The notes: generated by a model from the letters alone, not told the origin. A stretch of DNA of 24,495 nucleotides from an uncultured Gammaproteobacteria bacterium (GCA_964590985.1 CAZPZA010000001.1:1-24495); one strand, 5' to 3'. Numbered from the stretch's first letter, positions 3,557 through 24,495 are shown. Program-made: numbers and translations.

Positions 3557-3624
3557 AGATTTATGATTTAAGAATAAGAGGAGGGAAGATAATTCATAAA
3601 TCTTAAATTGTAAATCATAAATCT
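3557..3624. repeat. Inverted heptamer-type array (ATTTATG/ATTTAAG units), possibly a terminator
   Basis: AGATTTATGATTTA (3557-3570) is perfectly inverted at TAAATCATAAATCT (3611-3624), directly after the stop of 3623-4321. Confidence 0.75.
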
Positions 3625-4321
3625 ATCTAAGAGTAGTTAGGATTTCGGGTAAAAGAATAATTCTTGTTGCTGTAATTAGATTTTCTTCTTCTTTGTTTGC
3701 TTGTCCTGTCGCAATAACTCTTTCATTTCCTTTTATCTTGGAAAATCCAGAGCGGAGGAGCCCTTCGTCTTTAGAATAAGATGAAGTTTTGGTTGTTTTT
3801 TCTACGTCAAGAAACATCTCTTTGTTATCTTCCGTTTGAACTTTAACTCTAAATTTTGTAGCATCGAGAGAATCAATAACACCATAAACAATGACAGGAA
3901 GATCTATCGTACTTACAAAACGCGCAAGAATTCTTCTCGACTCTTTGTTGTAAAGCCCCAATGCACCAATAGTGTCGCCTTTTGTAATATCGGAAATTCC
4001 AAATTCCTTTTGAGCAGGATTTGAAAATTTTGTTAGCTCGTCCATATCTATAAATCTTGTATTGTTTTTTAAGTCAATAATTGTTATTTGAGTATCAGAA
4101 ACATCTGTTACTGTACCAATAATTCCCCGCTTTTCAACAAGATTAAGCTCTGCTACATGAGAAGCTATACGAGTTTTAAGATCAGTTATCTGCTGATTTA
4201 TAACTTCCTTACTATCCTTGCTTTCTGTGGTAGGCGTAGGAGTTGCGGCAATAGTAGGAATAGCGAAAATAGCAAATAGCAAATAGAAAATAGAAAATAG
4301 AAATAAGAGAATCTTTGCCAT
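3623..4321 (-). CDS. Secreted protein with probable tandem OB-fold (DUF5666-like) domains
   Basis: Hydrophobic signal peptide, Thr/Pro linker, and two repeats of the GxV-x-x-V...I-x-x-G-D-x-V/I-x-A-x-G type. Confidence 0.65.
   Translation of the reverse strand: MAKILLFLFSIFYLLFAIFAIPTIAATPTPTTESKDSKEVINQQITDLKTRIASHVAELNLVEKRGIIGTVTDVSDTQITIIDLKNNTRFIDMDELTKFSNPAQKEFGISDITKGDTIGALGLYNKESRRILARFVSTIDLPVIVYGVIDSLDATKFRVKVQTEDNKEMFLDVEKTTKTSSYSKDEGLLRSGFSKIKGNERVIATGQANKEEENLITATRIILLPEILTTLR
4266..4300. repeat. Heptamer tandem array (A/C)AAATAG x5 encoding part of the signal peptide
   Basis: AAAATAG CAAATAG CAAATAG AAAATAG AAAATAG, read as LFSIFYLLFAIF on the minus strand. Confidence 0.8.
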
Positions 4322-4340
4322 ATGTCAACCTCACCCCCAA

Positions 4341-4361
4341 CCCTCTCCTAAAAGGAGAGGG
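4341..4361. repeat. REP-like hairpin
   Basis: CCCTCTCCT-AAA-AGGAGAGGG preceded by CCTCACCCCCAA, between two co-directional genes. Confidence 0.7.
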
Positions 4362-4366
4362 AACTC

Positions 4367-4795
4367 TTAAAACTCCTCGGTTGAGAAGGTTACCGTTCTA
4401 GTCAATCTTTCGCTTTGTCCATTTGGGGCAATGGCTATTACGTCTATCATATTTTGATCATCTAAAATGCTGATAGTTGTTAGGAAGTCTCCATTTTGTG
4501 AGGGAGTTACAATGTCTTGATAGTCTTTGGAGATTATAGCAACGATGGCATCAGCAGTGGTTTTGCCAGATATTGTGATTATCTTTTTGGTAAATACCTC
4601 TTCGTCTTTTGGCGAATCAAGAGTTAAAAAAAATGTTTGCTTTGGAGTAGGTGAGAGAGCTATTTTAGAAACTACTTTATTTTGTTTTTGATCTGCTATT
4701 CTGTTTGCAGATTCGTAAAAATAGAATGCAATTGCCGCAACCAATAACCCAATAAAAACAGCAACAAAAGACAATATGATTTTCTCCTTTTTCAT
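4367..4795 (-). CDS. Membrane-anchored protein with a bacterial Ig-like domain
   Basis: N-terminal TM helix, then ITISGKT...NGDF...N-x-I-x-V-x-A beta-sandwich pattern; start moved to ATG 4795 (MKKEKII) because of the promoter position. Confidence 0.7.
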   Translation of the reverse strand: MKKEKIILSFVAVFIGLLVAAIAFYFYESANRIADQKQNKVVSKIALSPTPKQTFFLTLDSPKDEEVFTKKIITISGKTTADAIVAIISKDYQDIVTPSQNGDFLTTISILDDQNMIDVIAIAPNGQSERLTRTVTFSTEEF

Positions 4796-4808
4796 AAAAG
4801 CGAGAGAA

Positions 4809-4837
4809 ATCATACGATAAAAAAATATGCTTGTCAA
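4809..4837 (-). promoter_or_regulatory. sigma70 promoter
   Basis: Minus strand TTGACA (4837-4832), 17 nt, TATGAT (4814-4809); ATG 13 nt downstream. Confidence 0.75.
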
Positions 4838-4871
4838 GGAAAATTGGCTATGATATCATAGGTATAATAAG

Positions 4872-5393
4872 ATGTTGGATATTTATGTTCTTGGTAGTAA
4901 TTCAATAAAAATTCGTACAAAACGGGTATCTTTTGTTGTTGATCCCGTTGATTCAATTAGCAAAACAAATGCTGACGCTGTGCTTGTTTTGAGGAAAGAG
5001 ACTGTAGATTTAGCAAGAGTTTCAAACTATAGAGTTGTTTTGCGAGGCGAGGGAGAATACGAGATTGAAAATGTTAAGATTTCAGGCATTGCGGCAGGAG
5101 AGGGTTTTGTTTATAGTATTTTTGCAGATAATATGGAGATTGTTTTGGGCAGAGTAAGTACGCTTTTAAGAATACAAGATAAAAGCTTGTTATGCCAAGT
5201 TGCGCTTCTTAATGTAGACAACGAATTAAAATCTATTATTGCAAACTTAGAACCAAGAGCTGTTATTTTGTATGGAGAGAAAAGGATCGAAGGAGCCAAA
5301 GAATTAGGAAAAGATTGGGTAAAGCCAGTTTCGAAAGTTACTGTTACGAAAGAAAAGTTAGAGAAGGAGATAGAAGTAGAGGTGTTGGGATAA
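4872..5393 (+). CDS. Degenerate metallo-beta-lactamase-fold protein
   Basis: LGSNSIKI...VVDP...ADAVLV...GEGEYEIENVKISGI resembles MBL-fold proteins, but the HxHxDH motif is absent and the protein has no His. Confidence 0.6.
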   Translation: MLDIYVLGSNSIKIRTKRVSFVVDPVDSISKTNADAVLVLRKETVDLARVSNYRVVLRGEGEYEIENVKISGIAAGEGFVYSIFADNMEIVLGRVSTLLRIQDKSLLCQVALLNVDNELKSIIANLEPRAVILYGEKRIEGAKELGKDWVKPVSKVTVTKEKLEKEIEVEVLG

Positions 5394-5400
5394 AATAGTT

Positions 5401-5496
5401 AAAAGTTCAAAGTGCAAAGTTCAAAATTACAATTCAAAATTAAAAATTTTTAACTTTAAACTGTAACTTTTAATTTTTAACTTTGAACTTTAAATT
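5401..5496. repeat. Inverted heptamer array (AAAGTTC/AAAATTC units)
   Basis: Left AAAAGTT CAAAGTG CAAAGTT CAAAATT ACAATT CAAAATT AAAAATT; right TAACTTT AAACTG TAACTTT TAATTTT TAACTTT GAACTTT. Confidence 0.85.
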
Positions 5497-5501
5497 TATT
5501 T

Positions 5502-6824
5502 ATGGCAACCTTAAAGGTTCCTCCTCACAACGAAGAAGCCGAAAGCAGCGCATTGGGTGCGATACTTATAGACAAAGACGCTATAAGCGTTGTATCCTCA
5601 TTTATTTCTGTGAATGACTTTTACAATCAGGTTAATGGTTTAATCTATAGGGCAATGCTATCTTTATACGAGAAAGGCGAGCCAATAGATATGCTTACTC
5701 TTATATCTCGACTTAAGAAAGAAAAAACGTATAAAAAAGTTGATTCTTCTTATCTTGTTAACCTTGTTAACACTGTTCCAACTGCAGCAAATGTAGAACA
5801 TTATGCATTATTAATTAAAGAAGCTGCAACAAAAAGAGCATTAATTCAGGCTGGAACTCAAGTTGTGGAGATGGGATTCTCCGAAGATCAAGAGGCGGCA
5901 GACTGTCTTAACAAAGCAGAATCAGCGATATTTTCTATCTCTCAAAAAAACAACTTGCGGTCTTTTGTTTTACTAAAGGATGCACTCGCAGAAAGCTTTG
6001 ATAGAATAGACGAACTTCATAAGAAAGATTCGGGACTGCGAGGTGTTGCGACAGGTTTTGTGGATTTGGACAAAATTTTATCTGGCATGCAGAGATCCAA
6101 CCTTCTTATTTTGGCAGCGCGCCCGGGCCAGGGAAAAACAGCTATGGTGGTAAATATTTCTCGGTATATTACAGTTAACGACAAAAAACCAGTTGGTATA
6201 TTTTCTTTGGAAATGAGCAAAGAAGAATTGGTGGATAGACTGTTGGTTGGGCAAGCAGATGTTGATGCTTGGAGAATAAAAACTGGAAGGCTGTCGGATG
6301 CAGACTTTACTAAACTATCAAATGCTATGGGAGAATTGGCAGAGGCAAAAATTTTTATAGACGATACACCGGGAATCTCGGTATCTGAAATGCGTACAAA
6401 AGCAAGGCGTTTGCATCTTGAGCAAAATTTATCTTTACTAATAGTAGATTATCTCCAGCTTGTTGATCCCGGACGAAGGTACGATAACAGAGTGCAGGAA
6501 GTATCTATTGTTTCTCAATCGCTTAAAAATTTGGCGCGAGAACTTAAGATTCCGGTTTTGGCTGTATCCCAACTCTCAAGGGCAGTTGAGCACAGAGGCG
6601 AAAAAAGACCTCAACTTGCCGATCTTAGGGAGAGTGGTTCTATAGAACAAGATGCAGACGTAGTGATGTTTTTGTATAGGCCAGAGAGTGAGCCTGCGCC
6701 TATAATACTAACAAAACTTTTTGTAGCCAAACACAGAAATGGTCCAATGGGAGAAATAGATTTAGGCTTCCGTGGAGCAAGGTTGAGATTTGAAAATATA
6801 GAAGGAAGAAGAGAGTTCGCATGA
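5502..6824 (+). CDS. dnaB: Replicative DNA helicase
   Basis: PPHNEEAE N-terminus, Walker A ARPGQGKT, IVDYLQL, SQLSR, LRESGSIEQDAD, KHRNG; no intein. Confidence 0.98.
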   Translation: MATLKVPPHNEEAESSALGAILIDKDAISVVSSFISVNDFYNQVNGLIYRAMLSLYEKGEPIDMLTLISRLKKEKTYKKVDSSYLVNLVNTVPTAANVEHYALLIKEAATKRALIQAGTQVVEMGFSEDQEAADCLNKAESAIFSISQKNNLRSFVLLKDALAESFDRIDELHKKDSGLRGVATGFVDLDKILSGMQRSNLLILAARPGQGKTAMVVNISRYITVNDKKPVGIFSLEMSKEELVDRLLVGQADVDAWRIKTGRLSDADFTKLSNAMGELAEAKIFIDDTPGISVSEMRTKARRLHLEQNLSLLIVDYLQLVDPGRRYDNRVQEVSIVSQSLKNLARELKIPVLAVSQLSRAVEHRGEKRPQLADLRESGSIEQDADVVMFLYRPESEPAPIILTKLFVAKHRNGPMGEIDLGFRGARLRFENIEGRREFA

Positions 6825-6830
6825 GCATAT

Positions 6831-6915
6831 TAAATATAAAAAATATAATATCAAATATACATATAAAATATTAAAAATATTTAATATTTACTATTTACCA
6901 TTTAATATTTTATGT
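6831..6915. repeat. Inverted AT-rich heptamer array (AAATATC-type units)
   Basis: CAAATAT ACATAT AAAATAT TAAAAAT on the left, mirrored by ATTTAAT...TTTAATATTTTATGT on the right. Confidence 0.65.
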
Positions 6916-6937
6916 GGTTTGAGGGGGGTGATGAATA

Positions 6938-7129
6938 GTGGATGATCAGATGAATCAAGGAACGGGAGGTATGGTTGGATCGGTCCCCCCACAGCCTATG
7001 GGAGGGATGAATCCACAGCCTCCACCAATGGGAGGAATGGAAGGAGAAGACCCGCATGAAAAAATTATAGCTTCACTCTTAAGAATAGAGGAGAAGTTAG
7101 CAACAATTGCTGCCAAAGTTGGAGCGTAG
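6938..7129 (+). CDS. Small protein with a Met/Gly/Pro-rich N-half and a coiled-coil C-half
   Basis: 63 aa, GTG start preceded by the strong SD-like GAGGGGGGTGA (6921-6931). Confidence 0.6.
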   Translation: MDDQMNQGTGGMVGSVPPQPMGGMNPQPPPMGGMEGEDPHEKIIASLLRIEEKLATIAAKVGA

Positions 7130-7131
7130 AT

Positions 7132-7152
7132 TTGCAAGGTGAGACCTTGCAA
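7132..7152. repeat. REP-like hairpin
   Basis: TTGCAAGGT-GAG-ACCTTGCAA, 9-bp perfect stem; the CAAGG/CCTTG outer arms are shared with 2701-2732. Confidence 0.75.
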
Positions 7153-7164
7153 GAGGAACTTGCA

Positions 7165-7188
7165 ATATCTATAACGATCCCATATCGT
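7165..7188 (+). repeat. REP-like family A, diverged copy
   Basis: ATATCTATAACGATCCCATATCGT versus consensus GTATCTGTACCGATCCCRTATCGG, with a compensatory A-T closing pair. Confidence 0.65.
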
Positions 7189-7240
7189 TAGTATATCCAC
7201 GAAATGGAAAACTCTTTTCTCCAGGTAAAAATTTCCTTAC

Positions 7241-7285
7241 TGGTGCTGGGGAGGAAGTCGAACCCTCACAGCCTTGCGACTAGTA
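7241..7285 (-). pseudogene. 3' half of a tRNA-Leu (att-like remnant)
   Basis: 7250-7285 is 34/36 identical to 8657-8692 of the tRNA-Leu in the same orientation; it ends CCCAGCACCA. Confidence 0.85.
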
Positions 7286-7289
7286 ATCC

Positions 7290-7559
7290 CTATTTTGTCT
7301 CAAGCAGAAATGGCTCTTGTTTTTTAATTCTATTGTTATTTTTTAAGAATCCTGCAATATTTAATTCTTTTGGAAATATGCCAATTACCTCAAGGCTGAT
7401 TGCTCTACCTTGCCTATCTTTGATGATTACATCATTACTATAGGGAGAATCTACTTGATGAGAAGAATATGCTTTTTTAGGATCACCCCACCAGATATTA
7501 AGTGTGTTTGCTACAGGATCAAGATAAAGTTTTACTGTTCTTTTTGTTGCTTTAGCCAT
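7290..7559 (-). CDS. DUF2283-family protein (putative antitoxin)
   Basis: LYLDPVANTLNI and KDRQGRAISLEVI match the DUF2283 pattern; overlaps the upstream gene by 28 bp. Confidence 0.7.
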   Translation of the reverse strand: MAKATKRTVKLYLDPVANTLNIWWGDPKKAYSSHQVDSPYSNDVIIKDRQGRAISLEVIGIFPKELNIAGFLKNNNRIKKQEPFLLETK

Positions 7560-7882: not shown

Positions 7883-7888
7883 GAAGTT

Positions 7889-7917
7889 ATTGTAATGGCA
7901 TATCCTGTATTTTACAA
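7889..7917 (-). promoter_or_regulatory. Leaderless-type promoter of the toxin/DUF2283 pair
   Basis: TTGTAA (7917-7912), 17 nt, TACAAT (7894-7889), GTG 6 nt later. Confidence 0.65.
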
Positions 7918-7979
7918 GGCATTAGCTATTTAACTGTGGGCTGCGGTCGCAGGGGATAGTTAAATGCTGTTCTCAAAAT

Positions 7980-8036
7980 TACCGTTTCGTCGTATCTGTA
8001 CCGATCCCGTATCGGAAGTATGTCTACGAAGCGGTA
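7980..8036 (+). repeat. REP-like family A, full composite copy
   Basis: Core TCGTCGTATCTGTACCGATCCCGTATCGG (7987-8015) inside the outer stem TACCGTTTCGT/ACGAAGCGGTA. Confidence 0.9.
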
Positions 8037-8065
8037 TGAAGTGGAGTTGGTACCCTATCGATAAT

Positions 8066-8647: not shown

Positions 8648-8649
8648 AG

Positions 8650-8732
8650 TGGGCAAGGAGGGAGTCGAACCCTCACAGCCTTGCGACCAGTAGTTTTTGA
8701 GACTACCGCGTATACCATTCCGCCACTTGCCC
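8650..8732 (-). tRNA. tRNA-Leu(CAA), CCA not encoded
   Basis: GGGCAAG/CTTGCCC acceptor stem, GGAATGGTA D-loop, GTAGT-CTCAAAA-ACTAC anticodon arm, long variable arm, GAGGG-TTCGACT-CCCTC T-arm. Confidence 0.97.
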
Positions 8733-9725: not shown

Positions 9726-9741
9726 GTACCGTTTGAGTGCT

Positions 9742-9823
9742 CCATTGTTCTATTGCTTCATTGTTTAATTGTTCACTTGACAAAATGTCTTAGCAATTGA
9801 GCAATGTAACAATTTTACAATTT
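9742..9823. repeat. Inverted octamer arrays
   Basis: CCATTGTT CTATTGCT TCATTGTT TAATTGTT ... AGCAATTG AGCAATGT AACAATTT TACAATTT. Confidence 0.8.
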
Positions 9824-9894
9824 TTGCTATGATTTTTATAAATGATTTAAGGAGCCTCGAAACTTAAAGCTAGGAGAAGACATAGTAGATTAAT

Positions 9895-11150: not shown

Positions 11151-11864
11151 ATGGAATTTTTTATTTTGGTTTTGTTGGTTTGCCTTTTGATATTTTTAGG
11201 CTCTCTTTATTTCTTGGCAAATGACGATCTTGTGTTGTTGCGGAAAGACACGTCTTTGGAGCGGGTTTTTGACATTGCATTGGTTATGGCGTTTAGTTCT
11301 TTGCTTTCGGCAAGAATTTTATATGTTATCCTTAATCCAAGCTCTGGTTTTTTAAATCCTTTGGTGTTTTTTTTGTTTCCTTATTTTCCTGGGCTTTCTT
11401 TAACTGGTGGGGTAGTAGGGGCATTGTTGGCATTTTTTTTGTTTTATGCCAGAGAATCAAAAGCACCAGTTGGTCGTTTGTTGGATTTTTTTTCTATTGC
11501 TTTTTTGGTCGCTTTGTCTGTGGGGCTTTTGGGTTTTGTAATTCTATCTTGGGGGCAAGAAGACACGTTTCCTATGATAGGATTAATTGTTGCATATATA
11601 GCCTTGTTGGCTGTTGTTATAAAATTTTATTTGCCCGAGATGTTAAGGGGCGAACTTAGAGATGGGACAATAACACTTATAATTTTATTATCATTTTCCG
11701 CAGTTTCCTTGCTTGCAAATTTTATACAAAAGCAGAAGATTGATTTTAGTATTGAAGAGTGGATTTTAATAGTCTTATTTTTATCCTCGCTTGCCCTTCT
11801 TGCCAAACAGCATAGGTTGCATTATAGGTTGATGGAGAAGGTTAGGGAAAAGCTTAAGAGATGA
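11151..11864 (+). CDS. Prolipoprotein diacylglyceryl transferase (Lgt)-like membrane protein, divergent
   Basis: ARILYVI, GLSLTGGVVG and RLLDFF resemble the Lgt N-half; the RxGNF and HPSQLYE motifs are not found. Confidence 0.6.
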   Translation: MEFFILVLLVCLLIFLGSLYFLANDDLVLLRKDTSLERVFDIALVMAFSSLLSARILYVILNPSSGFLNPLVFFLFPYFPGLSLTGGVVGALLAFFLFYARESKAPVGRLLDFFSIAFLVALSVGLLGFVILSWGQEDTFPMIGLIVAYIALLAVVIKFYLPEMLRGELRDGTITLIILLSFSAVSLLANFIQKQKIDFSIEEWILIVLFLSSLALLAKQHRLHYRLMEKVREKLKR

Positions 11865-11899: not shown

Positions 11900-11958
11900 T
11901 CGTCGTATCTGTACCGATCCCGTATCGGAGGTAATGGTTCGTATCGGAGGTAATGGTT
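11900..11958 (+). repeat. REP-like family A copy plus an adjacent 19-bp tandem duplication
   Basis: Core 11900-11928; CGTATCGGAGGTAATGGTT occurs at 11921-11939 and 11940-11958. Confidence 0.9.
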
Positions 11959-12079: not shown

Positions 12080-12868
12080 ATGGAACCAAGGATAATTTTT
12101 GAGGACAGTGAGATTTTGGTTTTGGATAAGCCGTCTGGGATGATTGTTAATAAGTCGGATACAACAAAAGGGGAGTACACGCTTCAAGATTGGGTAGAGA
12201 AGTATCTGAAAATCCGAAGCACGAAGCACGAAATCCGAAACAAATCCAAAATACAAAATTTAAATGCTCAAAACGATTTCGAATTTCGAGATTCTAATTT
12301 CGAATTTTCCAACAGAGCTGGAATTGTTCATAGATTGGATAAGGAGACTTCGGGAGTTCTTTTGGTAGCTAAAAATCTTGAGGCATTCACAAACTTGCAA
12401 AGGCAGTTTAAGGAAAGAAAAGTAAAAAAAACATATATTGCTTTGGTTCACGGAAAGGTAGAGCCGACAGAAGGGGAGATAAATGTAGCAGTTGGTAGAT
12501 TACCATGGAATAGGAAAAGGTTTGGAGTAGTAGCCGAGGGGAGGGAAGCTGTGACTAAGTATAAAGTATTAAGTATTAAGTATTATGTATTAGGGAATAA
12601 AAATGAACCATTGACGCTTCTTGAATTATATCCAGAAACAGGGAGAACACATCAGATAAGAGTGCATCTTAAGTATTTCAATCATCCAATTTTTGCCGAT
12701 CCCCTCTATGCTGGCAGAAAAACAGCAAGAAACGACAGAAAGTTTTTGCCCCGCATTTTTCTGCACGCGTCAAAAGTTTCATTTATGCATCCCAAGACCA
12801 AAGAGATGGTTGAATTTCAGAGCGCAGTACCAGATATATTGAGGCTATTTTTAAAACAGCTTTCTTGA
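12080..12868 (+). CDS. RluA/RluD-family 23S rRNA pseudouridine synthase without an S4 domain
   Basis: LDKPSG, HRLDKETSG (catalytic Asp), TGRTHQIRVH, HPIFADPLY, FLHA. Confidence 0.95.
   Translation: MEPRIIFEDSEILVLDKPSGMIVNKSDTTKGEYTLQDWVEKYLKIRSTKHEIRNKSKIQNLNAQNDFEFRDSNFEFSNRAGIVHRLDKETSGVLLVAKNLEAFTNLQRQFKERKVKKTYIALVHGKVEPTEGEINVAVGRLPWNRKRFGVVAEGREAVTKYKVLSIKYYVLGNKNEPLTLLELYPETGRTHQIRVHLKYFNHPIFADPLYAGRKTARNDRKFLPRIFLHASKVSFMHPKTKEMVEFQSAVPDILRLFLKQLS
12210..12307. repeat. In-frame inverted heptamer array within the RluA-family gene
   Basis: AAATCCG AAGCACG AAGCACG AAATCCG...AAAATAC AAAATTT...ATTTCGA ATTTCGA GATTCT AATTTCG; encodes KIRSTKHEIRNKSKIQNLNAQNDFEFRDSNFEF. Confidence 0.85.
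12557..12591. repeat. In-frame heptamer array AAGTATT x5 within the RluA-family gene
   Basis: AAGTATA AAGTATT AAGTATT AAGTATT ATGTATT; encodes KYKVLSIKYYVL. Confidence 0.85.
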
Positions 12869-13051: not shown

Positions 13052-13195
13052 ATGGGAGCTTATGGAGGATTTTACAAGGGAGAAAGAAAAAAAAAGAAAA
13101 AAGAAGCTATAAAAACTGTTTCAACTTCTGGTCTTGGATCACCAACAGTTATCATGCCCGAAATAATCTCGAAGAAGAAGCCTTCAGGCAGCTAA
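13052..13195 (+). CDS. Small basic protein (47 aa), missed by the ORF track
   Basis: Perfect SD AAGGAGGTGA (13038-13047); MGAYGGFYKGERKKKKKEAIKTVSTSGLGSPTVIMPEIISKKKPSGS. Confidence 0.7.
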   Translation: MGAYGGFYKGERKKKKKEAIKTVSTSGLGSPTVIMPEIISKKKPSGS

Positions 13196-13213: not shown

Positions 13214-14017
13214 ATGAAAAGAAAAAAGAAAAAAGATGCTGCGTCAAATATCAGACTTATTGTAGCTTTCTTCGTACTTGTTCTTGTTTTTATTGCAATT
13301 TCCTTAGTTTTTAAACTAGGAATTATACTCTCCAAGAGTATTTATGATGACTCTAATCGCTTTACAATTAAGATTGAGAACGGTAAGGACTTAAGGATTA
13401 TGTCGTTTTCGGGAAGATCGAAATTATTGTCTTTGCTTTACATCAAAGATGTTCAAGACATAAATATTAACAAACTTTTGGCAATTCCAATAGACGCTTC
13501 TATTGCAACCTCTTTTCGGATAAAAGAAGATAATATATCGGATTTAATAGCTAATCTTATTTTAAATTATGCCAAGTTAGAAACAAATCTTACCATCATA
13601 GATATGGCAAAAATTTATTTGTTTACTAAAACTGTGCCCACAAACAATCTTTCCTATAATAGCGTTTCTTTGTCTTGGGATAATAAAGCGATAGACAAAA
13701 TTATTAGCGAGTTGGTAAGAGACGAGGCAATCGAGAAAGAAAATTTAACTATAAAAGTCGTAAACTCTACAGACGTTGATGGTCTTGGCGGAAGACTTGC
13801 AAGACTTATTTCTAATATGGGGGGAAACGTAGTGCTCATAGAATCAGCTGATAAGACAGAACCCCAATCCACCATTTACTACTTCGGAGAAAAAAGCTAT
13901 ACGGTAGAAAAATTAGAAGAGATTTTAGGATACACGAGTAATAAGTTGGGGACAAGACCTATAACAGATGTAGTTTTGGTTATAGGAGAAGATGGTGAAA
14001 AGACCAATATCTTTTAG
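13214..14017 (+). CDS. Membrane-anchored protein with a LytR C-terminal (LytR_C) domain, LCP-like
   Basis: Basic N-terminus and TM helix; IKVVNSTDVDGLGGRLARLISNMG...DVVLVIGED. Confidence 0.8.
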   Translation: MKRKKKKDAASNIRLIVAFFVLVLVFIAISLVFKLGIILSKSIYDDSNRFTIKIENGKDLRIMSFSGRSKLLSLLYIKDVQDININKLLAIPIDASIATSFRIKEDNISDLIANLILNYAKLETNLTIIDMAKIYLFTKTVPTNNLSYNSVSLSWDNKAIDKIISELVRDEAIEKENLTIKVVNSTDVDGLGGRLARLISNMGGNVVLIESADKTEPQSTIYYFGEKSYTVEKLEEILGYTSNKLGTRPITDVVLVIGEDGEKTNIF

Positions 14018-15487: not shown

Positions 15488-16310
15488 GTCTTTGATTGGT
15501 TTTAATTTCAAGCAGTATTTGAGATTCAGAAGAAATTTTTCAGGAATTGGTAAGAGACAAAAGTTTATAATTACCGCTGTAAGCTCATCTCTTATTTTAT
15601 TTTTAGCCCAACATTTGTTAGGTAGCCAAACTTTCTATATTGCTTTTTTCCTGGCATTCTTTTCTGTTTTTCTTCTTTTCTGGTCTGTATATAAAGACTT
15701 AAGAAACAACAATTCTTTGCAAGTTTTTATTCTTCCGTTTTTTTACAGCCTTGCTTTTGCGCTTTTTTATCCTCTGGTTCCTGAAAGGCTTTTAGTAAGA
15801 ATTGTAATGACAGCTATATATGGTTTTGGTTTGTATTCTTTGCTTTTAAGTATGAACATTTTTGTTGTTTCATCGATAAGAACTATAGCTTTAGTATCTT
15901 CTGCCCGTACCGTATCTTTTATAGCCACTATTTTGTCTTACTTTTTTATTGTCAACGTTATTTTTTCGATGCACTTAAACGGTTTTCTTACTCTGCTTTT
16001 TGTTTTTGGATTTTCTTTCCCTTTTGTTTTGCATTCGCTTTGGGCACATAGTCTGGAAAGTAGGTTTTTTTCTAATTTATTATGGGTTTTCTCCATTAGT
16101 CTTTGTTTAGCAGAGATAGCATTTATTTTGTGGTTTTGGTCGGTACTTCCGACGATTATAGCCTTGTTTTTGACTGGTTTCTTCTACATAACAGTTGGAA
16201 TTTCTCAGGTTTGGTTAGATAGGAGGCTTTTTAAAAGCATTATGTGGGAGTATATATGGGTAGGAAGTCTGGTATTTATATTGTTTATTGTGTTTGCTTT
16301 TAAAAGATAG
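15447..16310 (+). CDS. Multi-pass membrane protein, function unknown (start uncertain)
   Basis: About 8-9 hydrophobic segments. Confidence 0.75.
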   Translation: MMYKKFIQILRFTKSLIGFNFKQYLRFRRNFSGIGKRQKFIITAVSSSLILFLAQHLLGSQTFYIAFFLAFFSVFLLFWSVYKDLRNNNSLQVFILPFFYSLAFALFYPLVPERLLVRIVMTAIYGFGLYSLLLSMNIFVVSSIRTIALVSSARTVSFIATILSYFFIVNVIFSMHLNGFLTLLFVFGFSFPFVLHSLWAHSLESRFFSNLLWVFSISLCLAEIAFILWFWSVLPTIIALFLTGFFYITVGISQVWLDRRLFKSIMWEYIWVGSLVFILFIVFAFKR

Positions 16311-16311
16311 A

Positions 16312-16355
16312 CTCGTAAAAAGCAGACACCTCGTTGGGGGGGGTGTCTTTACGAG
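16312..16355 (+). terminator. Hairpin after the membrane protein stop, possible terminator
   Basis: CTCGTAA/TTACGAG outer and AGACACC/GGTGTCT inner stems; U-tract is weak. Confidence 0.4.
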
Positions 16356-16492
16356 GTCTTGTCGTTTGATTAGCATAAAGGTAGGGAAGAGGAGAGGAGA
16401 TATGACAGATGATGTTTTGTTTTAAAAAACGCTTTGGTTGGCCCAAATGATCTATTTTGATATATTTACCTAAATTATTATAGGATATAAAT

Positions 16493-16501
16493 TGTGGATA
16501 A
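16493..16501 (-). promoter_or_regulatory. Consensus DnaA box (single)
   Basis: TGTGGATAA, i.e. TTATCCACA on the minus strand, next to an AT-rich tract; another perfect box lies at 19289-19297. Confidence 0.35.
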
Positions 16502-16584
16502 CTTTTGTTGGAATAGAATTTTCACGAGATTTCTGCTTGAGTTTTCACAGGGATTGAAGGATAAGTAGTTGCCCTCCGCCCCAA

Positions 16585-16785
16585 TCTTGTCTTGCGCTTT
16601 GTCAGTACTATTCGTCGAGCTCAGATCGATTTCTATACTGTGCAAAGGCGGACATAAGAAACCGTAATGTGCTCTCCGCCTGAGGGGCGGCTCGCAAACG
16701 GTTTCTAATGAAAAAAATACGAATGTCTGTTTTCGCGTGATTGCGAGGCGAAAATTGAACGTTTAGATTGTAAAATCAATCTAAA
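16585..16785. other. Dense cluster of hairpins (possible ncRNA or stacked REP remnants)
   Basis: Imperfect 75-nt hairpin 16585-16659; AGAAACCGT/ACGGTTTCT 16657-16706 with inner CCGCC/GGCGG; TTTTCGC/GCGAAAA 16730-16754; TTTAGATTG/CAATCTAAA 16762-16785. Confidence 0.5.
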
Positions 16786-16841
16786 TAGTAAAATAAATAA
16801 CGAATGATCTACGGCACTCCTTAATTTCCTCAAAAATGTGA

Positions 16842-16870
16842 TTTACAAATTAAGATCTAATATGTACAAT
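16842..16870 (+). promoter_or_regulatory. Promoter of the LAGLIDADG gene
   Basis: TTTACA (16842-16847), 17 nt, TACAAT (16865-16870). Confidence 0.55.
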
Positions 16871-16900
16871 ACACTTATCTAGTTCTTTTTTTATTCTTGT

Positions 16901-17410
16901 ATGGAACCTTCTTCTCTTCCATCAGGAGACTTTGTCGCTGGTCTAACAGATGGCGAAGGATGTTTTGCATTAAAGTTTCGTCGTGACTTTAAAAAGAACC
17001 GGCCCAATTCTCCTGTCTACTTCGGTTGGCAGTCCGCTTTTATTATTACCCTTCGAAAAGACGACTTTCCTTTATTGCAGAAAGTTAGACAAGTGGTCGG
17101 ATGTGGAACAATCACTATCTCAGGGAATTCTGTTAGTTTTCAGGTTCAAGATACGGATGAGCTTCTCAATATCATTGTTCCATTTTTTACTCGTTATAAG
17201 CTTCATGGAAAGAAATCGGAAGATTTCAAGTTATGGGTAGAGGCAGTGAAATTAATAGCTTCTAACAAAAAGCGAAATGTAAATGTTCAAAGAGGAGTAC
17301 GGGGCTTTATCAAAGTTAATTGGAAAAAAGAAGATCTTTTACGTTTAAACGAAATCCGTAAGGATATGAGGGTATATAAAGCTGCTCATTCTCCTTTTAA
17401 ATGGGATTAA
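16901..17410 (+). CDS. Single-motif LAGLIDADG homing endonuclease, free-standing
   Basis: DFVAGLTDGEGCF, IIVPFFTRYKLHGKKSEDFKLW; 169 aa, homodimeric class. Confidence 0.92.
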   Translation: MEPSSLPSGDFVAGLTDGEGCFALKFRRDFKKNRPNSPVYFGWQSAFIITLRKDDFPLLQKVRQVVGCGTITISGNSVSFQVQDTDELLNIIVPFFTRYKLHGKKSEDFKLWVEAVKLIASNKKRNVNVQRGVRGFIKVNWKKEDLLRLNEIRKDMRVYKAAHSPFKWD

Positions 17411-19286: not shown

Positions 19287-19291
19287 ATTTA

Positions 19292-19346
19292 TCCACATCG
19301 TCGTATCTGTACCGATCCCATATCGGTTTTCTATTGGCGATGCGGA
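19292..19346 (+). repeat. REP-like family A composite copy
   Basis: Core 19298-19326 (CCCAT loop variant) within outer stem TCCACATCGTC/GGCGATGCGGA; starts 5 nt after the xer stop. Confidence 0.9.
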
Positions 19347-19458: not shown

Positions 19459-19511
19459 TCAAATGCATTTCTTAAACCATCACAATTTGATGAATTGAAA
19501 AATTTGTGATA
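19459..19511 (+). repeat. Left arm of the inverted repeat flanking the PaaX/Cas2-like gene
   Basis: AATTGAAAAATTTGTGATA (19493-19511) is the exact reverse complement of 20162-20180; similarity extends imperfectly to ~53 bp. Confidence 0.85.
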
Positions 19512-19541
19512 ATTATAAGCATTTAGTTTTTAACTGGGTTT

Positions 19542-20120
19542 TTAAATTCCAAAATATTCCCTGTAGGCTTTTTCATTTTCGAGTCCGCTTACCGTAAGTA
19601 TTAATGCTTCTGTATTAATGGAGCAAACTTGGCGTAAATATTCAATTTCGTCATAACACTTAAATGGCGTTAAATATACGCTTCTTTGGAGCTTTAGGAA
19701 TTTAAGTCTTTTTAAGGTTTTTCGAAAAAGACTTGCCTCTTCCTTTTTGCCGGTAAGAATATCATAAATTATAATTCGCCATTTTCCATCCCATTTTTGG
19801 TCTTTAAGTTCCATTTCATCAAGATTAAACTTAAGCAATCTTTTTTTACCATTTTCAGAGATTTTTACTATATGTTCTTCGTTGTTCTCTACTATCTCAA
19901 CCAATTTTTGTTGATGCATTCTTTTTAATACTTGCTTTAATCTCCAAGTATTAAATTTTTTCCACTCGTTTTCTTCTCTTTTTTTCTTTTCGTCCAAGAA
20001 TGGCTTTAAAACCATTGGGAGATTAGGCATAACAATACTTGCAGCAAGGAATGTTCCTGCACCAAGGAGCATTAACACTTCTTTTACTTTTGGATCAATT
20101 TTCTTAGAAGGTGGTCGCAT
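19542..20120 (-). CDS. PaaX-like protein: winged helix plus Cas2/VapD-like ferredoxin-fold domain
   Basis: LKQVLKRMHQQKLVEI...ISENG (wHTH); KWDGKWRIIIYDI...FRKTLKRLKFLKLQRSVY (PaaX central, Cas2-like domain). Confidence 0.8.
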   Translation of the reverse strand: MRPPSKKIDPKVKEVLMLLGAGTFLAASIVMPNLPMVLKPFLDEKKKREENEWKKFNTWRLKQVLKRMHQQKLVEIVENNEEHIVKISENGKKRLLKFNLDEMELKDQKWDGKWRIIIYDILTGKKEEASLFRKTLKRLKFLKLQRSVYLTPFKCYDEIEYLRQVCSINTEALILTVSGLENEKAYREYFGI

Positions 20121-20161
20121 AAATAAATTGCTAAAGTTAAAGTTTAGCTATAATCCTAAAG

Positions 20162-20213
20162 TATCACAAATTTTTCAATTGCGCAATCTGTGATGGATTT
20201 GAAGTGGATTTGA
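20162..20213 (-). repeat. Right arm of the inverted repeat flanking the PaaX/Cas2-like gene
   Basis: TATCACAAATTTTTCAATT GCGCAATCTGTGATGGATTTGAAGTGGATTTGA. Confidence 0.85.
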
Positions 20214-20261
20214 ACGATTTAAACAAAAAAGTTTTGTAACAAATAGCATATAATAGCGTCT

Positions 20262-21110: not shown

Positions 21111-21119
21111 AATACAATA

Positions 21120-21614
21120 ATGACATCACACAAAATTTTCTTAGGTCTTGGAGCAAACGTGGGAGATAAAAAGGCAAATTTGCTAAAAGCTATTGAGCTT
21201 TTGAAAGAAAAAGTATCAGATATTGTTGTTGCGCCAGTATACGAGACAAAACCCTGGGGTTATAAAGAGCAAGATAATTTTTTGAATACTGCTGTTAGGG
21301 GGAGCACTTCCCTATCGCCTATCCATCTTTTAAGATTTGTCAAAGATATTGAGAAAAAAGTTGGTAGAATAAAAAGATTTAAATGGGGACCAAGAGAAAT
21401 TGATATTGATATTTTATTTTATGACAATCTTATTTGCAAAGATCATAATCTTGAAATTCCCCACCCTCGTCTTCATAAGCGAGATTTTGTCTTAAAGCCC
21501 CTAATGGATTTGGACAAAGATTTAATTCATCCAGTTTTCAAAAAGACAGTGATTGAGGTTTATAAAGTACTACCAAAAACAGATTGTTTTATAGTTAGGA
21601 CTATCAAAGCATAA
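21120..21614 (+). CDS. folK: 2-amino-4-hydroxy-6-hydroxymethyldihydropteridine pyrophosphokinase
   Basis: LGLGANVGD, YETKPWG, FLNTAV, WGPREIDIDIL, IPHPRLHKRDFVLKPL. Confidence 0.97.
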   Translation: MTSHKIFLGLGANVGDKKANLLKAIELLKEKVSDIVVAPVYETKPWGYKEQDNFLNTAVRGSTSLSPIHLLRFVKDIEKKVGRIKRFKWGPREIDIDILFYDNLICKDHNLEIPHPRLHKRDFVLKPLMDLDKDLIHPVFKKTVIEVYKVLPKTDCFIVRTIKA

Positions 21615-21621
21615 TACCGGA

Positions 21622-21650
21622 TCGTCGTATCTGTACCGATCCCGTATCGG
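21622..21650 (+). repeat. REP-like family A copy between convergent genes
   Basis: TCGTCGTATCTGTACCGATCCCGTATCGG, identical to 7987-8015 and 11900-11928. Confidence 0.9.
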
Positions 21651-21659
21651 AATAGCATA

Positions 21660-23156
21660 CTAATGCTGATTACTCAAATTATCAATGACCATTGCTGCTA
21701 CTTCAACATCGGTAATTAAATTTATTCCCATATTCACAGAAATTTTTCTAATCAACTTTCCATCAGTAAACTCCTTGCCCTCTTTAATCTTATCTCTGGT
21801 TGGAATGTTGACGACAAGGTCAAAAACCTTTCTTTGTAAAAGATCGGCAATATTTGGGTTTTTGCCTCCTTCAGAGATTTTGTAGACAAGAGATGTAGGT
21901 ATTCCATGTTCTTTCAAAAATCTATGTGTTTTTTCGGTAGTATATAGAATGACATTTGAGTCTCTTGCCAAGTTTTTGATATGAGGCAGTAAAAATTTTT
22001 TATTTTTAATTTTCCCAATTGTCAATAAAACATGTGTTTTTTTCTGACTTAAGATTGCAGCTTGTCCATACCTTGATTTGCTCCAGTCTTCTGTTTGAGT
22101 ATTGAGAAGTGAAAAAATAGAAACATTTCTAATATCTTTTTCAGCAAAAATGTATTGCAGTACCCTTTCATTTCCAATGCCATAACCAGCGTGCGGATTA
22201 GTAGAATTTTGCTCTATAATATCTAGATACCATTTAAAATCTTCGTATTTACCTCCTCGCATTATATGTAGTTGATACATGGTGGAGGTGATTAATCGGC
22301 TATTGAGTTTTTTGAAATCATGCTCGCGAACCGATGCTCCTGTTCCCTCTCCGGCATAAGGAAAAATTAAATCTGCAGATAACACCACTCTCTCATCTTT
22401 AGTATAAACCTTCATGTTGAAAAACTTAATTTCTTTGGGATATTTCATGATAAACACCGGCAACTCCCCATTTTTTTTATTAAGGAGTTCAACAATTTTT
22501 GCCTCGTGTTTAGTTTTTAAATCATCACCAAATTTAACTTCTGGATAACCGTTGCTATTTAAAAGTTTTATTGCTGATTCATACTCGATTCTTAAAAAAT
22601 TTTTTATTGTTGTTTCAGTTAGTCTATCTACATTTCTTTTGTAAACCTTTCTTAAAATCTCCTCACGATCTATTAGCACTTTTTTAATCATGGACTGCAC
22701 TGTTTTTTGAATACTATTAAGCAAAGCTCCATACATTTGATCTTCGTCATAGTTTTCCCTTGTAAGACCAGTAAGTGTGCAGTCAAACTCTTCTTCTGTA
22801 AGCCTGAATTGTCTAAGATGTCTTTCATCTTCTTTGTCCTCATCGCGGCCCGAATGAATAATAGTGTATACAGCTGGCAATGACTGGAGTGCTTGTTCGA
22901 GAGCAAGTTGGCCTGTTTGGGTAAAAAATAGCGGTAGATCAAGACGATTGCCTACCTTAAAAAGAGTATCAACATTCTCACAAGCGCCTGTAATGCCTAC
23001 TATTTGGGGTACATCGACATATACTCTTCCTCTTTCTTGATAGCTTTCGTGGGCGCCTTGGTTTAGACTTTGGTTAACATTTATTAAATTTAGGAAATGA
23101 TCATCAAAATCTAAAGCGAGCCTTTTTCCTTCGGCACAAAGAGAAATTTTTTTCAT
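21660..23156 (-). CDS. AsnRS/AspRS-like class IIb catalytic core (no anticodon domain) fused to a CarB-type MGS domain
   Basis: FFTQTGQLALE, motif-2-like SGRDE...RHLRQF, FIMKYPKEIKFFNMK, SADLI..GE..GAS.RE, motif 3 PHAGYGIGNERV; C-terminal VLLTIG...TTEKTHRFLKEHGI...DLVVNIPT...DGKLIRK...ITDVEVA. Confidence 0.85.
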   Translation of the reverse strand: MKKISLCAEGKRLALDFDDHFLNLINVNQSLNQGAHESYQERGRVYVDVPQIVGITGACENVDTLFKVGNRLDLPLFFTQTGQLALEQALQSLPAVYTIIHSGRDEDKEDERHLRQFRLTEEEFDCTLTGLTRENYDEDQMYGALLNSIQKTVQSMIKKVLIDREEILRKVYKRNVDRLTETTIKNFLRIEYESAIKLLNSNGYPEVKFGDDLKTKHEAKIVELLNKKNGELPVFIMKYPKEIKFFNMKVYTKDERVVLSADLIFPYAGEGTGASVREHDFKKLNSRLITSTMYQLHIMRGGKYEDFKWYLDIIEQNSTNPHAGYGIGNERVLQYIFAEKDIRNVSIFSLLNTQTEDWSKSRYGQAAILSQKKTHVLLTIGKIKNKKFLLPHIKNLARDSNVILYTTEKTHRFLKEHGIPTSLVYKISEGGKNPNIADLLQRKVFDLVVNIPTRDKIKEGKEFTDGKLIRKISVNMGINLITDVEVAAMVIDNLSNQH

Positions 23157-23170
23157 GTCGCTGGGATTTT

Positions 23171-23199
23171 AGTTTATAGATCTTATTATTTTTTGTCAA
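23171..23199 (-). promoter_or_regulatory. Promoter of the AsnRS-like-MGS gene
   Basis: TTGACA (23199-23194)-17-TAAACT (23176-23171); ATG 14 nt downstream. Confidence 0.7.
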
Positions 23200-23285
23200 T
23201 AGTCAATTCTTGTTCGAAGAGTTACATGGGAGGTGGACTAGATAGGACACCGCCTTAGAGATTTTGTACAAGGGGATGAACTATG

Positions 23286-23321
23286 CCGATATGGGATCGG
23301 AATAGCTATGCCGAAGCGGTA
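23286..23321 (-). repeat. REP-like family A diverged copy overlapping the pyrC stop codon
   Basis: Minus strand TACCGCTTCGGCATAGCTATTCCGATCCCATATCGG aligns without gaps to 7980-8015. Confidence 0.75.
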
Positions 23322-24495
23322 ATAATTTTCCCAAATCCTTCTTTTGCGAGGATTTTTCCGTTTTCAAAGACTTTTTTTCCACGAATAAAAACTCTCACAA
23401 CTTTTCCTTTTACCTTCATTCCCTCAAATGGTGACCAACCACACTTCGTAAATAAGGATGAATTATGAATGATGAATGATGAATTAAGATCTACTTCGGT
23501 ATAGGTTTCCTTATCAACTTTAATTCCAAAAATTTTTGCAGGGTTTGTGTGGCAGAGACGAATGATATCACTAAGTGTTAATCTTTTCTCAGAAACTGCG
23601 GTTAGTAAAAGTGGAAGGGTTGTTTCAAAACCAGGAACTCCAAAAGGTGGAAGAATCTGCGGGTCCTGGCGGGCTTTACCCCCGTCCGACATCCTCAGTC
23701 GCTTTGCTCCCTGCGGTTGCTCGACGGGGTCCCCCGCGCCCGCCACCCGCATAGTTTTTCCCACTTTTTCCGCAATTGTATGGGGGGCGTGGTCGGATTC
23801 GACAACGTTAATATATTTTAAATTTTCCCACAAAAACTCTACATCTTTTTTACTTTGCAAAGGTGGTCTCATTTTTCCAAAAGGACCAAGGATTTTTGCA
23901 TCTTTTTCATTCAAAAATAAATGATGAGGAGTTACGCCACAGGTTATTGGAAGGCCTTGTTCTTTGGCATGTATGATCATTTTAAGTTCAAAAGCTTGAC
24001 TTATATGACAAAAATGAGTCGGTGTTTTTATTTTTTTAACTACATTTATTACATCTTCAATTTTCTTCCCTTCTGCATGTACAAGTATCGGTTTTACGTT
24101 TTTCGTCGAAAGTATACTACTATGTAGTGCTATACTTTGGAACGCGTTTAACCAAGCGGTAAATATACTCTCTAAGATGTTTTTCTGAACAATAAAGTTT
24201 CCAGTAGTTTGATTAAGATATAATTTAAGTCCCATTACTTTATCTTTTACTTTTCTGAATTCATCGAGATTGTCACCCATTGATCCAAAGTAAAATCCTA
24301 CGTCGCAGACAATTTTTTTCTTGGCAATTTTTATTTTTTCATTTAATAATTTTGAAGTTGTAACAGGGACTTTGTTGTTCGGCATGTCAAAGATTGTGGT
24401 AAAACCTCCGGCAAGCGCGGCGCAAGTTCCGGTATAAAAATCTTCTTTGTGAGTCTGCCCCGGATCGCGTAAATGAACATGAGGATCAATAAGGC
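23306..24495 (-). CDS. pyrC: Dihydroorotase (runs off the right edge)
   Basis: The frame is open beyond the ORF-track start: LIDPHVHLRDPG...AALAGGFTTIFDMPN; also VHAE, CHIS, CGVTPHHL, SDHAPH, FGVPGFET, CGWSPF. Confidence 0.93.
   Translation of the reverse strand, partial: LIDPHVHLRDPGQTHKEDFYTGTCAALAGGFTTIFDMPNNKVPVTTSKLLNEKIKIAKKKIVCDVGFYFGSMGDNLDEFRKVKDKVMGLKLYLNQTTGNFIVQKNILESIFTAWLNAFQSIALHSSILSTKNVKPILVHAEGKKIEDVINVVKKIKTPTHFCHISQAFELKMIIHAKEQGLPITCGVTPHHLFLNEKDAKILGPFGKMRPPLQSKKDVEFLWENLKYINVVESDHAPHTIAEKVGKTMRVAGAGDPVEQPQGAKRLRMSDGGKARQDPQILPPFGVPGFETTLPLLLTAVSEKRLTLSDIIRLCHTNPAKIFGIKVDKETYTEVDLNSSFIIHNSSLFTKCGWSPFEGMKVKGKVVRVFIRGKKVFENGKILAKEGFGKIITASA
23456..23483. repeat. Heptamer array (GGATGAA TTATGAA TGATGAA TGATGAA) inside pyrC
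   Basis: Encodes (NS)SFIIHNSS just before LFTKCGWSPF. Confidence 0.7.
23658..23751. repeat. 94-bp GC-rich palindromic element, in-frame in pyrC
   Basis: Nested arms TGCGGG/CCCGCA, TGGCGGGC/GCCCGCCA, CCCCGTC/GACGGGG; 68/94 G+C by hand count. Confidence 0.85.
24109..24139 (-). repeat. REP-like family B copy, in-frame in pyrC
   Basis: 30/31 identical to 1135-1165; encodes QSIALHSSIL. Confidence 0.9.

Follow-up and report, generated by a model that had tools for sequence, protein, structure and literature searches.

The STRR heptamers of cyanobacteria, said to have been described by Mazel and co-workers in 1990, are reportedly short tandem heptanucleotides dispersed in non-coding DNA. Two further systems bear on repeats with inverted arms: the Rickettsia palindromic elements (RPE), palindromic DNA of about 100 nt found in spacers and, in frame, within conserved genes, and quasipalindrome template-switch mutagenesis (Ripley model; Dutra and Lovett), in which fold-back copying makes inverted repeats alike and moves indels between the arms. 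As cited in two later papers (PMC4679880, PMC4692102), heptamers are the most abundant class of longer bacterial simple sequence repeats (SSRs), and they were proposed to originate by slippage, the polymerase being hypothesised to hold a stretch of 7 nt (Mrazek, Guo & Shah 2007, PNAS). Xanthomonas carries about 185 GGGAATC arrays and 70-75 closely spaced inverted array pairs per genome; from species to species the arrays keep their position and their type (single or pair) but differ in length and sequence (Rehm et al. 2015, PMC4692102). In marine Beggiatoaceae, 2-6 copies of TAACTGA lie a few nucleotides upstream of starts without a Shine-Dalgarno sequence; a regulator-binding site was proposed, and one indirect repeat occurs among 170 (MacGregor 2015, PMC4679880). 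REPINs, likewise palindromic spacer DNA of about 100 nt, form, as outlined in PMC3116915, a conserved-sequence family with a dedicated RAYT transposase. The present analysis concerns the tandem arrays in 24,495 nt deposited as DNA of an uncultured Gammaproteobacteria bacterium (GCA_964590985.1, CAZPZA010000001.1:1-24495; this whole stretch is called the window). With slightly better than an even chance, these arrays are heptanucleotide (once octanucleotide) microsatellite-like repeats that arise by slippage with a 7-nt bias and by copying between arms, and that are kept at permissive sites. As part of this explanation, they are on balance the counterpart, in Patescibacteria or the candidate phyla radiation (CPR), of the heptameric long SSRs of Xanthomonas, Nostoc/STRR and Beggiatoaceae.

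The best DnaB matches of the window are metagenome-assembled genomes labelled Candidatus Levybacteria/Levyibacteriota and other Patescibacteria, with an identity of at most 77%. Parts of the window are matched at 99.9% identity by three metagenome contigs. When metagenomes were scanned for moderately diverged relatives, the closest had 78% DnaB identity, and none fell between this level and the 99.9% contigs. Arrays were detected with Tandem Repeats Finder (TRF) and by a separate scan of periods 2-15, tested against 200 dinucleotide shuffles of the window. The comparison was extended to 1.14 Mb of CPR dnaB loci (labelled L plus a number), with expectations from block-wise dinucleotide shuffles, and to a second, independent sample of 80 metagenome loci (0.86 Mb).

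The sequence-only reading, an earlier model-made note on the same DNA, had reported arrays at eight places. All eight are found by TRF, and their sequences were read directly: 3597-3624, 4265-4303, 5397-5498, 6827-6910, 9738-9824 (period 8/16), 12215-12307, 12556-12592 and 23457-23484. Beyond these, TRF reports 13081-13106 and 13217-13236 (AAAAGAA) and 2882-2919 (period 14). The number of strong period-7 arrays in the window is 4, compared with 0.00 in the shuffles, and the separate scan found no strong array at any other period from 2 to 15 in the window. The head-to-tail 7-nt copies thus run longer than chance, as in heptameric long SSRs (LSSR5-11 or STRR-like). In the CPR loci, 53 arrays of period 7 were observed (0.0 expected), 54 of period 14 (8.4 expected) and 18 of period 21 (0.6 expected), as against 5 of period 8 (0.4), 8 of period 10 (4.4) and 11 of period 11 (5.4); period 7 is favoured over the other non-triplet periods, again as in heptameric long SSRs. 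Shuffled AT-rich DNA, which the earlier note had named as a source that could yield similar arrays, therefore yields none at period 7, either for the window or for the CPR loci. Period 7 is again the commonest in the second sample (25 arrays), and a small sample of non-CPR loci (174 kb) holds 2 such arrays, both in a single locus. Both the window and CPR loci generally have a massive excess that is specific to period 7 and its multiples, and the density of period-7 arrays in the window (2.9 per 10 kb) is about six times the CPR average (0.47). The lengths cluster: 31 of 80 period-7 arrays measure 30-32 nt, with a sharp fall above 32 nt, perfect arrays being detectable from 20 nt; this mode may be a detection effect or an equilibrium length.

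Four of the window arrays occupy co-directional spacers and begin 0-13 nt past a stop codon. (i) A hairpin of AAATCAT/AAATCTT units and their complements (3540..3630, reverse strand; arms 3543-3570 and 3590-3617, 82% complementary; RNA fold -20.3 kcal/mol) sits between the stop of the open reading frame (ORF) 3623..4321(-) and the start of the M24 peptidase ORF 2423..3514(-). (ii) A hairpin of the form AAAGTTC... / ...GAACTTT (5384..5509, forward strand; arms of 63 nt, 78% complementary) fills the spacer from the stop of ORF 4872..5393 to the dnaB start at 5502, and a unit one nucleotide short is mirrored in both its arms; the right arm stops 5 nt ahead of the dnaB ATG, a layout that recurs in L004, L007 and L011. 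(iii) An A/T-only array pair, AAATATN followed by AATATTT/ACTATTT (6827..6910, forward strand; TRF 6827-6879 and 6876-6910), begins 3 nt past the dnaB stop. (iv) An octamer-period hairpin (9738..9824, forward strand), composed of CCATTGTT CTATTGCT TCATTGTT TAATTGTT and, in the other arm, GCAATTGA GCAATGTA ACAATTTT ACAATTTT, begins 13 nt past the stop of a NIF3-like ORF (..9725) and folds at -25.1 kcal/mol.

The remaining arrays are translated inside reading frames, four of them listed in the earlier note and two found in addition by TRF. Since 7 is coprime to 3, such an array is read in all three unit frames and gives a 7-residue peptide repeat. The array at 4265..4303 (reverse strand; CTATTTT/CTATTTG on the coding strand, 5.6 copies, 93% in TRF) encodes the hydrophobic signal-peptide core MAKILLFLFSIFYLLFAIFAIP of ORF 3623..4321(-). 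The RluA-family ORF 12080..12868 holds an in-frame two-armed array at 12205..12312 (forward strand; TRF 12215-12232 and 12276-12307), encoding KIRSTKHEIRNKSKIQNLNAQNDFEFRDSNFEF, a 33-residue polar loop just ahead of the catalytic HRLD motif, and a second array without a hairpin at 12556..12592 (forward strand; AAGTATT, 5.3 copies, 90% in TRF), encoding KYKVLSIKYYVL. In the dihydroorotase ORF 23306..24385(-), four copies of ATTCATC on the coding strand (23457..23484, reverse strand; 4.0 copies, 90% in TRF) encode NSSFIIHNSSL. The two additional arrays are AAAAGAA in 2.9 copies (13217..13236, forward strand, with the related A-rich array at 13081-13106), which encodes the Lys-rich N-terminus MKRKKKKD of ORF 13214..14017 with a LytR_C domain (Pfam), and the period-14 array GTCTTTGGTAGCTA in 2.6 copies within the M24 peptidase ORF (2882..2919, reverse strand), of which a near-identical array with the same unit is present in L004 (1825-1856).

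Although about 91% of the DNA in the CPR loci is coding, 28 of the 53 period-7 arrays fall outside ORFs, an approximately 11-fold enrichment in spacers, as is typical of heptameric long SSRs; these placement counts rest on crude ORF-based gene calls. No bias towards a type of spacer was detected by the same calls, since the 18, 3 and 5 arrays in co-directional, convergent and divergent spacers follow the available length (55, 12.6 and 23.4 kb). The arrays sit where extra sequence is tolerated: in spacers right after stops, in a signal-peptide core, in a surface loop of RluA, in a Lys-rich N-terminus and in a segment of the dihydroorotase.

The earlier note described five arrays as built of two inverted arms. 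When one arm was aligned to the reverse complement of the other and the score compared with shuffles, four of them stood out clearly: the arrays at 5401 (30 vs 9.7±2.0), 3557 (18 vs 7.7±1.3), 9742 (14 vs 6.4±1.2) and 12210 (17 vs 6.4±1.2, ungapped over 33 nt). The fifth, the A/T-only array at 6831, proved marginal (18 vs 12.9±2.1). The corresponding RNA-fold z-scores are -4.2, -5.4, -4.0, -1.65 and, for the A/T-only array, -0.5. The element at 9742 has the same two-armed architecture at period 8. Four of the five pairs show the layout of the Xanthomonas inverted pairs, i.e. complementary units that are close and convergent. Across all loci, an inverted partner lies no more than 150 nt away for 21 of 55 period-7 arrays, compared with 6-9 of 55 in reverse-only or complement-only controls.

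Three hexamers inserted between heptamers had also been pointed out, and all are present (5429-5434, 5458-5463 and 6859-6864). They are inherited 1-nt deletions and follow no rule: the first two mirror each other in the arms of a single hairpin, which align over 48 nt without a gap, and the hexamer AAACTG recurs in the homologous hairpin of the relative L004. The earlier view that simple slippage is insufficient holds to this extent, as one-strand slippage alone leaves the paired inverted arms and the mirrored indel unexplained.

Comparison of orthologous sites allows the history of single arrays to be followed. In the signal-peptide array, the window has CTATTTT/CTATTTG, L008 four perfect copies of CTATTTA, L084 CTATTTT/TCATTTT and L004 TTGTTAA. 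The arrays of the window and L008 both end with CTATTTTCG, which indicates homology followed by homogenisation to a different variant in each.

The two-armed RluA array consists of an AAATCCG/AAGCACG arm and a complementary arm; it is an insertion relative to L005, L006, L012 and L013, and in comparison with a solved RluA-family structure the protein is longer there by about 29 residues. In the homologous arrays of relatives, the left arm is built of AAATTCC in L004, of 4.6 perfect copies of AAATCAC in L007 and of AAATCAC/AAATCGC in L010; the perfect copies in L007 point to ongoing homogenisation. The variable bases differ in both arms together (CG/CG in the window, CAC/GTG in L007 and L010). 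The last unit of the right arm corresponds to the conserved GAT-TTT (Asp-Phe) codons, present also in relatives without the insert, and this match to ancestral codons suggests that the arm was seeded by, and grew from, local sequence. In other lineages the same loop holds unrelated repeats: 3.8 copies of CAATTTT in L098, three copies of CCAATTT in L013, in L088 a 135-nt hairpin whose arms have a 9-nt period and, in L086, a perfect 28-nt palindrome TTGACCTGCCTGCCGGCAGGCAGGTCAA built of CCTG/CAGG repeats. A perfect palindrome in a coding loop points to a mutational origin and not to selection for structure. The RluA loop is a hotspot of repeat insertions across many CPR lineages. The second RluA array (12556..12592) is kept in L004 (11382-11417), a related period-14 array AAGTATAAAGTATC is present in L006, and the protein segment is conserved in orthologues.

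In the spacer upstream of dnaB, heptamer hairpins with differing units are found in the window, L004 (homologous to that of the window), L007, L011, L012 and L038. The spacer is empty in L008 and L084, where it measures just 1-14 nt, and no array is present there in L005, L010 and L013. Copy number and unit differ between species-level relatives. Arrays at orthologous sites thus outlast deep divergence, with units that drift and become homogeneous again; a comparison of unit turnover at such sites had been proposed in the earlier note, and drifted units across relatives are what the signal-peptide and RluA arrays show. Among the 99.9% identical contigs, the single difference at the arrays is a C-to-A change at 4280, which converts one unit variant into the other.

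The units of the window arrays all differ, as had been noted, with pairwise distances mostly of 2-3 in 7, and no unit is re-used among the arrays of the 24-kb window in the manner of the STRR or GGGAATC families. The proposed common grammar, an AA dinucleotide kept at the period, does not exceed chance in the window: in a circular reading of either strand, 79.5% of its 7-mers hold AA or TT (P=0.16 for eight of eight), and the grammar is to a large extent a matter of AT composition. A modest but real bias towards A-tract units of the AAAT type exists across the 55 arrays of all loci, 26 of which contain AAAT/ATTT, compared with 9.2 expected from the flanks (P=1.6e-7) and 13.8 from permuting the bases of each unit (P=3e-4). 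No consensus past the leading A-run emerged from 143 units, the commonest of which, AAATTAG, occurs 7 times. Re-use of one or a few units is seen in the CPR loci L038 and L053, unlike the window. The unit CTAA(A/C)CC recurs in three distant spacers of L038, and two related hairpins surround its dnaB. Its arrays at 1025-1055, 11465-11495 and 11835-11864 are made of CTAACCC/CTAAACC, the complement TTTAGGG/GGGTTAG being the plant-type telomere unit; they lie in three spacers of one CPR chromosome, and two of them flank a small gene in direct orientation. The idea that the arrays are heptad operator sites of a ribbon-helix-helix protein of the omega-repressor type was rejected, as one protein cannot read eight units.

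In the explanation by biased slippage, replication slippage in a favoured 7-nt register would duplicate whatever local sequence is present, so that units come out unrelated between sites, with A-tract-containing units somewhat favoured. The arms of two-armed arrays would be kept alike by intrastrand fold-back copying of the template-switch, quasipalindrome type, which would produce the mirrored indel and the co-varying bases in both arms, even inside a gene. Selection would act as a filter that removes gene-breaking arrays and tolerates the rest, perhaps sometimes exploiting them, for instance in the form of 3' stem-loops or of hydrophobic or polar stretches of peptide, and ongoing homogenisation would keep old arrays young-looking. 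A dedicated repeat-writing enzyme is not required.

Six observations weigh against this explanation. The 7-nt preference itself is not accounted for by slippage, the polymerase footprint being a hypothesis of the literature, and neither is the clustering of lengths at 30-32 nt. The three strain contigs show no copy-number difference at the four arrays they cover, so slippage is not seen directly on short time scales, a comparison that carries no information on its rate. Identical neighbouring units are not clustered within arrays (53 observed, 55.4 expected), contrary to what local duplication would predict. Identical units make up 8.0% of same-locus pairs and 1.2% of between-locus pairs, about a 7-fold difference, and this re-use at distant spacers, as in L038, is not predicted by purely local seeding. 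Finally, the array region of the dihydroorotase aligns without gaps to human CAD dihydroorotase, with zero net insertion, unlike the outcome of simple expansion.

Two other kinds of small repeat share the spacers and reading frames of the window. An approximately 30-nt dispersed element, TCGTCGTATCTGTACCGATCCC(A/G)TATCGG, with an internal CCGAT...ATCGG stem, is present in six copies in the 24 kb, all in spacers: 7987-8016, 11900-11929, 19298-19327 and 21622-21651 on the forward strand, 23281-23306 on the reverse strand, and a variant at 7166-7190. Five of the six lie 8-36 nt past a stop codon in sense orientation, and gene ends in the window bear either this element or a heptamer hairpin, never both. 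No Rfam model matches the element, none of the 160 related loci contains it, and it is therefore specific to this genome. In one copy the 3' end is lengthened by a perfect 19-nt tandem duplication at 11921-11958 (two copies of CGTATCGGAGGTAATGGTT). The second repeat is a 34-nt palindrome, AAAGTATA-GCGCTACATAGTAG-TATACTTT, at 1135-1168 and 24106-24139; the two copies, separated by 23 kb, are oppositely oriented. Each is located within an ORF and translated as QSIALHSSIL; that of the dihydroorotase falls within a segment of about 14 residues that human CAD is without. The palindrome looks like a small in-frame palindromic insertion.

Among the alternatives, a possible one, though it has the odds against it, is that selection maintains the two-armed arrays as RNA or DNA stem-loops (intrinsic terminators, stabilisers of 3' ends or insulators between cistrons), the periodic arms being a by-product of stem growth; it is compatible with the explanation by slippage. 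The placement of all four intergenic arrays directly after stops in co-directional spacers speaks for it, as do the three arrays that fold well beyond shuffles (z from -4 to -5.4) with U-rich 3' sides, the alternation of hairpin and 30-nt element at gene ends, and the recurrence of hairpins with other units up- and downstream of dnaB in several lineages. Canonical GC-rich terminators are also rarer in the window than in shuffles (3 vs 7.7). A consensus terminator scan, however, found none at the arrays, whose stems are A/T-rich, 30-50 nt long and periodically mismatched, in place of a G+C-rich stem with a U-tract. About half of the period-7 arrays are lone and non-folding, and many close relatives (L084, L005, L008) have no hairpin ahead of dnaB. 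A 3' stem-loop role is therefore possible for the intergenic hairpins, but it is probably not why the architecture exists, because placement in CPR spacers follows their length and because the same architecture occurs within the coding sequence of RluA, where it could hardly act as a terminator.

A somewhat more doubtful proposal is a hairpin-coupled process common to CPR/Patescibacteria, in which fold-back or template-switch synthesis with a step of about 7 nt would seed paired inverted arrays locally at permissive sites, those in genes being exapted as peptide segments. If true, T-rich units read in all three frames would supply signal-peptide and transmembrane cores and A-rich units polar loops, and very small genomes across the lineage would have a mutational source of de novo protein segments, possibly linked to some peculiarity of the CPR replication or repair machinery.

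It is unlikely that the two-armed arrays are decayed small mobile palindromic elements, similar to MITEs (miniature transposable elements with inverted repeats), REPINs or RPEs, that entered spacers and, in frame, genes. Such an origin would fit the patchy presence at the dnaB-upstream site and the other small dispersed elements of the window (the 30-nt element in six copies, the 34-nt palindrome in two ORFs). The multiple related copies expected of such families are partly seen in L038, whose two dnaB-flanking hairpins have a common unit and loop (ACGGATGG), and in L007, whose dnaB-flanking hairpins align beyond shuffles together with the RluA inserts of the window, L004 and L007. These cross-array z-scores are inflated by tandem structure, however, as the shuffle null destroys tandem order, and are given little weight. 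The window arrays have no common sequence beyond a unit-level A/T-rich likeness and so do not form a multi-copy family. No target-site duplication or sharp ends are apparent between filled and empty dnaB-upstream sites, the right arm in RluA continues ancestral codons, and the window holds no transposase or RAYT gene. Mobility in a few genomes, such as L038, is nevertheless suggested.

The sequence-only reading itself had favoured a dedicated process that writes or templates AA-phased heptamers, e.g. a telomerase-like reverse transcriptase or an HUH nuclease, and this is now very improbable. The strong lineage-wide specificity for period 7, the modest AAAT bias beyond composition, the re-use of a single unit at several sites in some genomes and the narrow length mode of 30-32 nt could be read in its favour. 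Templated addition would, however, be expected to leave a uniform unit and to come with a reverse transcriptase gene, and at least eight units occur in 24 kb, which would demand many templates. The arrays are inherited, and their units drift gradually at orthologous sites; the RluA arm appears to be seeded locally; and the same architecture occurs at periods 8, 9 and 4, the last two within the same RluA loop. In the window the AA rule falls short of significance, and unrelated bacteria are reported to show a preference for heptamers. The earlier remark that no candidate enzyme is visible agrees with the ORF calls and Pfam profile search, which found no reverse transcriptase, HUH nuclease or transposase in the window. 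Lastly, chance low-complexity AT-rich sequence or an assembly artefact has a negligible probability, for although the window is 63% A+T and the pure A/T array at 6831 folds no better than shuffles, dinucleotide shuffles give 0.00 arrays, period 7 alone is affected, the same arrays occur in three independent assemblies and arrays are translated in conserved ORFs across lineages.

The surrounding genes are of the housekeeping type: M24 peptidase, DnaB, an MFS transporter, Lgt, the RluA-family pseudouridine synthase, YebC, a tyrosine recombinase, FolP, FolK, an AsnA-like ligase and dihydroorotase. The A+T content of 63% comes from base counts, GC ranges from 33 to 41% along the window, and cumulative GC skew climbs over almost its entire length with small local dips only. 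A replication origin in the window was rejected on this ground, and the rising skew indicates that neither origin nor terminus lies inside. An Rfam search of the window, at the gathering threshold and at E<=1, returned tRNA-Leu as the sole match, so that the arrays match no known RNA family.

Several loci apart from the arrays deserve a record. A free-standing LAGLIDADG endonuclease gene occupies 16901..17410 (Pfam E=1.5e-20), and the approximately 590 nt ahead of it (region 16310-17410) contain no ORF of at least 80 aa and no match to rRNA, tRNA or intron models. At a distance of 1.4 kb from tRNA-Leu (8649-8732, reverse strand) is a 36-nt copy of its 3' half (7250-7285 vs 8657-8692, 94% identical); between the two are an alpha/beta-hydrolase-like ORF and two small ORFs, of which one weakly matches the PBECR3 nuclease, and this layout resembles a small island integrated at a tRNA. 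A single gene with a PaaX_M (Cas2-like) domain, ORF 19542..20120(-), adjoins the tyrosine recombinase gene and is bracketed by 41-nt inverted repeats (19474-19514 and 20159-20199, 83% complementary); gene and repeats may form a small mobile or invertible cassette.

The results suggest that heptamer microsatellites are also common in the CPR. The loci sampled hold about 47 period-7 arrays per Mb, or roughly 50 per 1-Mb genome; the arrays can be traced at orthologous sites over deep divergence and, within reading frames, build a signal-peptide core and a 33-residue enzyme loop. CPR genomes thereby offer a compact data set for two questions, namely why the period is 7 nt and how paired inverted arrays arise. 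For annotation, such arrays should not, without further evidence, be called regulatory repeats, CRISPR-like or TIGR-like arrays, or mobile elements. In a literature search with limited coverage of subscription journals, no description of heptamer arrays in CPR/Patescibacteria was found.

The kinship with heptameric SSR/STRR repeats proposed in the earlier note is borne out, as both the 7-nt preference and the inverted-pair layout have been described in other bacteria. Like the heptameric long SSRs, as these are summarised in the later papers, the arrays are 7-nt tandems that dominate among the non-triplet periods, are mostly intergenic and have no fixed unit across organisms; unlike them, on the same summaries, roughly half of the CPR arrays lie in reading frames and many form inverted pairs. 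The GGGAATC arrays of Xanthomonas and the GGGGA(T/C)T arrays of Nostoc share with the window and its relatives the intergenic position, the occurrence as singles or inverted pairs, and a site that is kept while length varies. They belong, however, to one G-rich unit family with quadruplex potential, whereas the window has at least eight unrelated A/T-rich units and arrays inside genes. The STRR families likewise comprise few genome-wide units. The right arm at 5401, close before the dnaB start codon, recalls TAACTGA of Beggiatoaceae, which is a single unit and almost never inverted, in contrast to the different units and inverted pairs of the window. The RluA insert at 12205-12312 behaves like an RPE, being in frame in a conserved gene; RPE and, as far as PMC3116915 outlines them, REPIN have a conserved family sequence, which the window arrays lack along with a RAYT gene. 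Quasipalindrome copying is what the mirrored hexamer 5429-5434 / 5458-5463 would need, although in E. coli that mechanism yields point mutations and indels and is not known to generate periodic arms. The window thus represents a known, poorly understood kind of repeat and differs in three respects: its A/T-rich units are many and unrelated, reading frames are often occupied, and turnover can be traced at orthologous sites.

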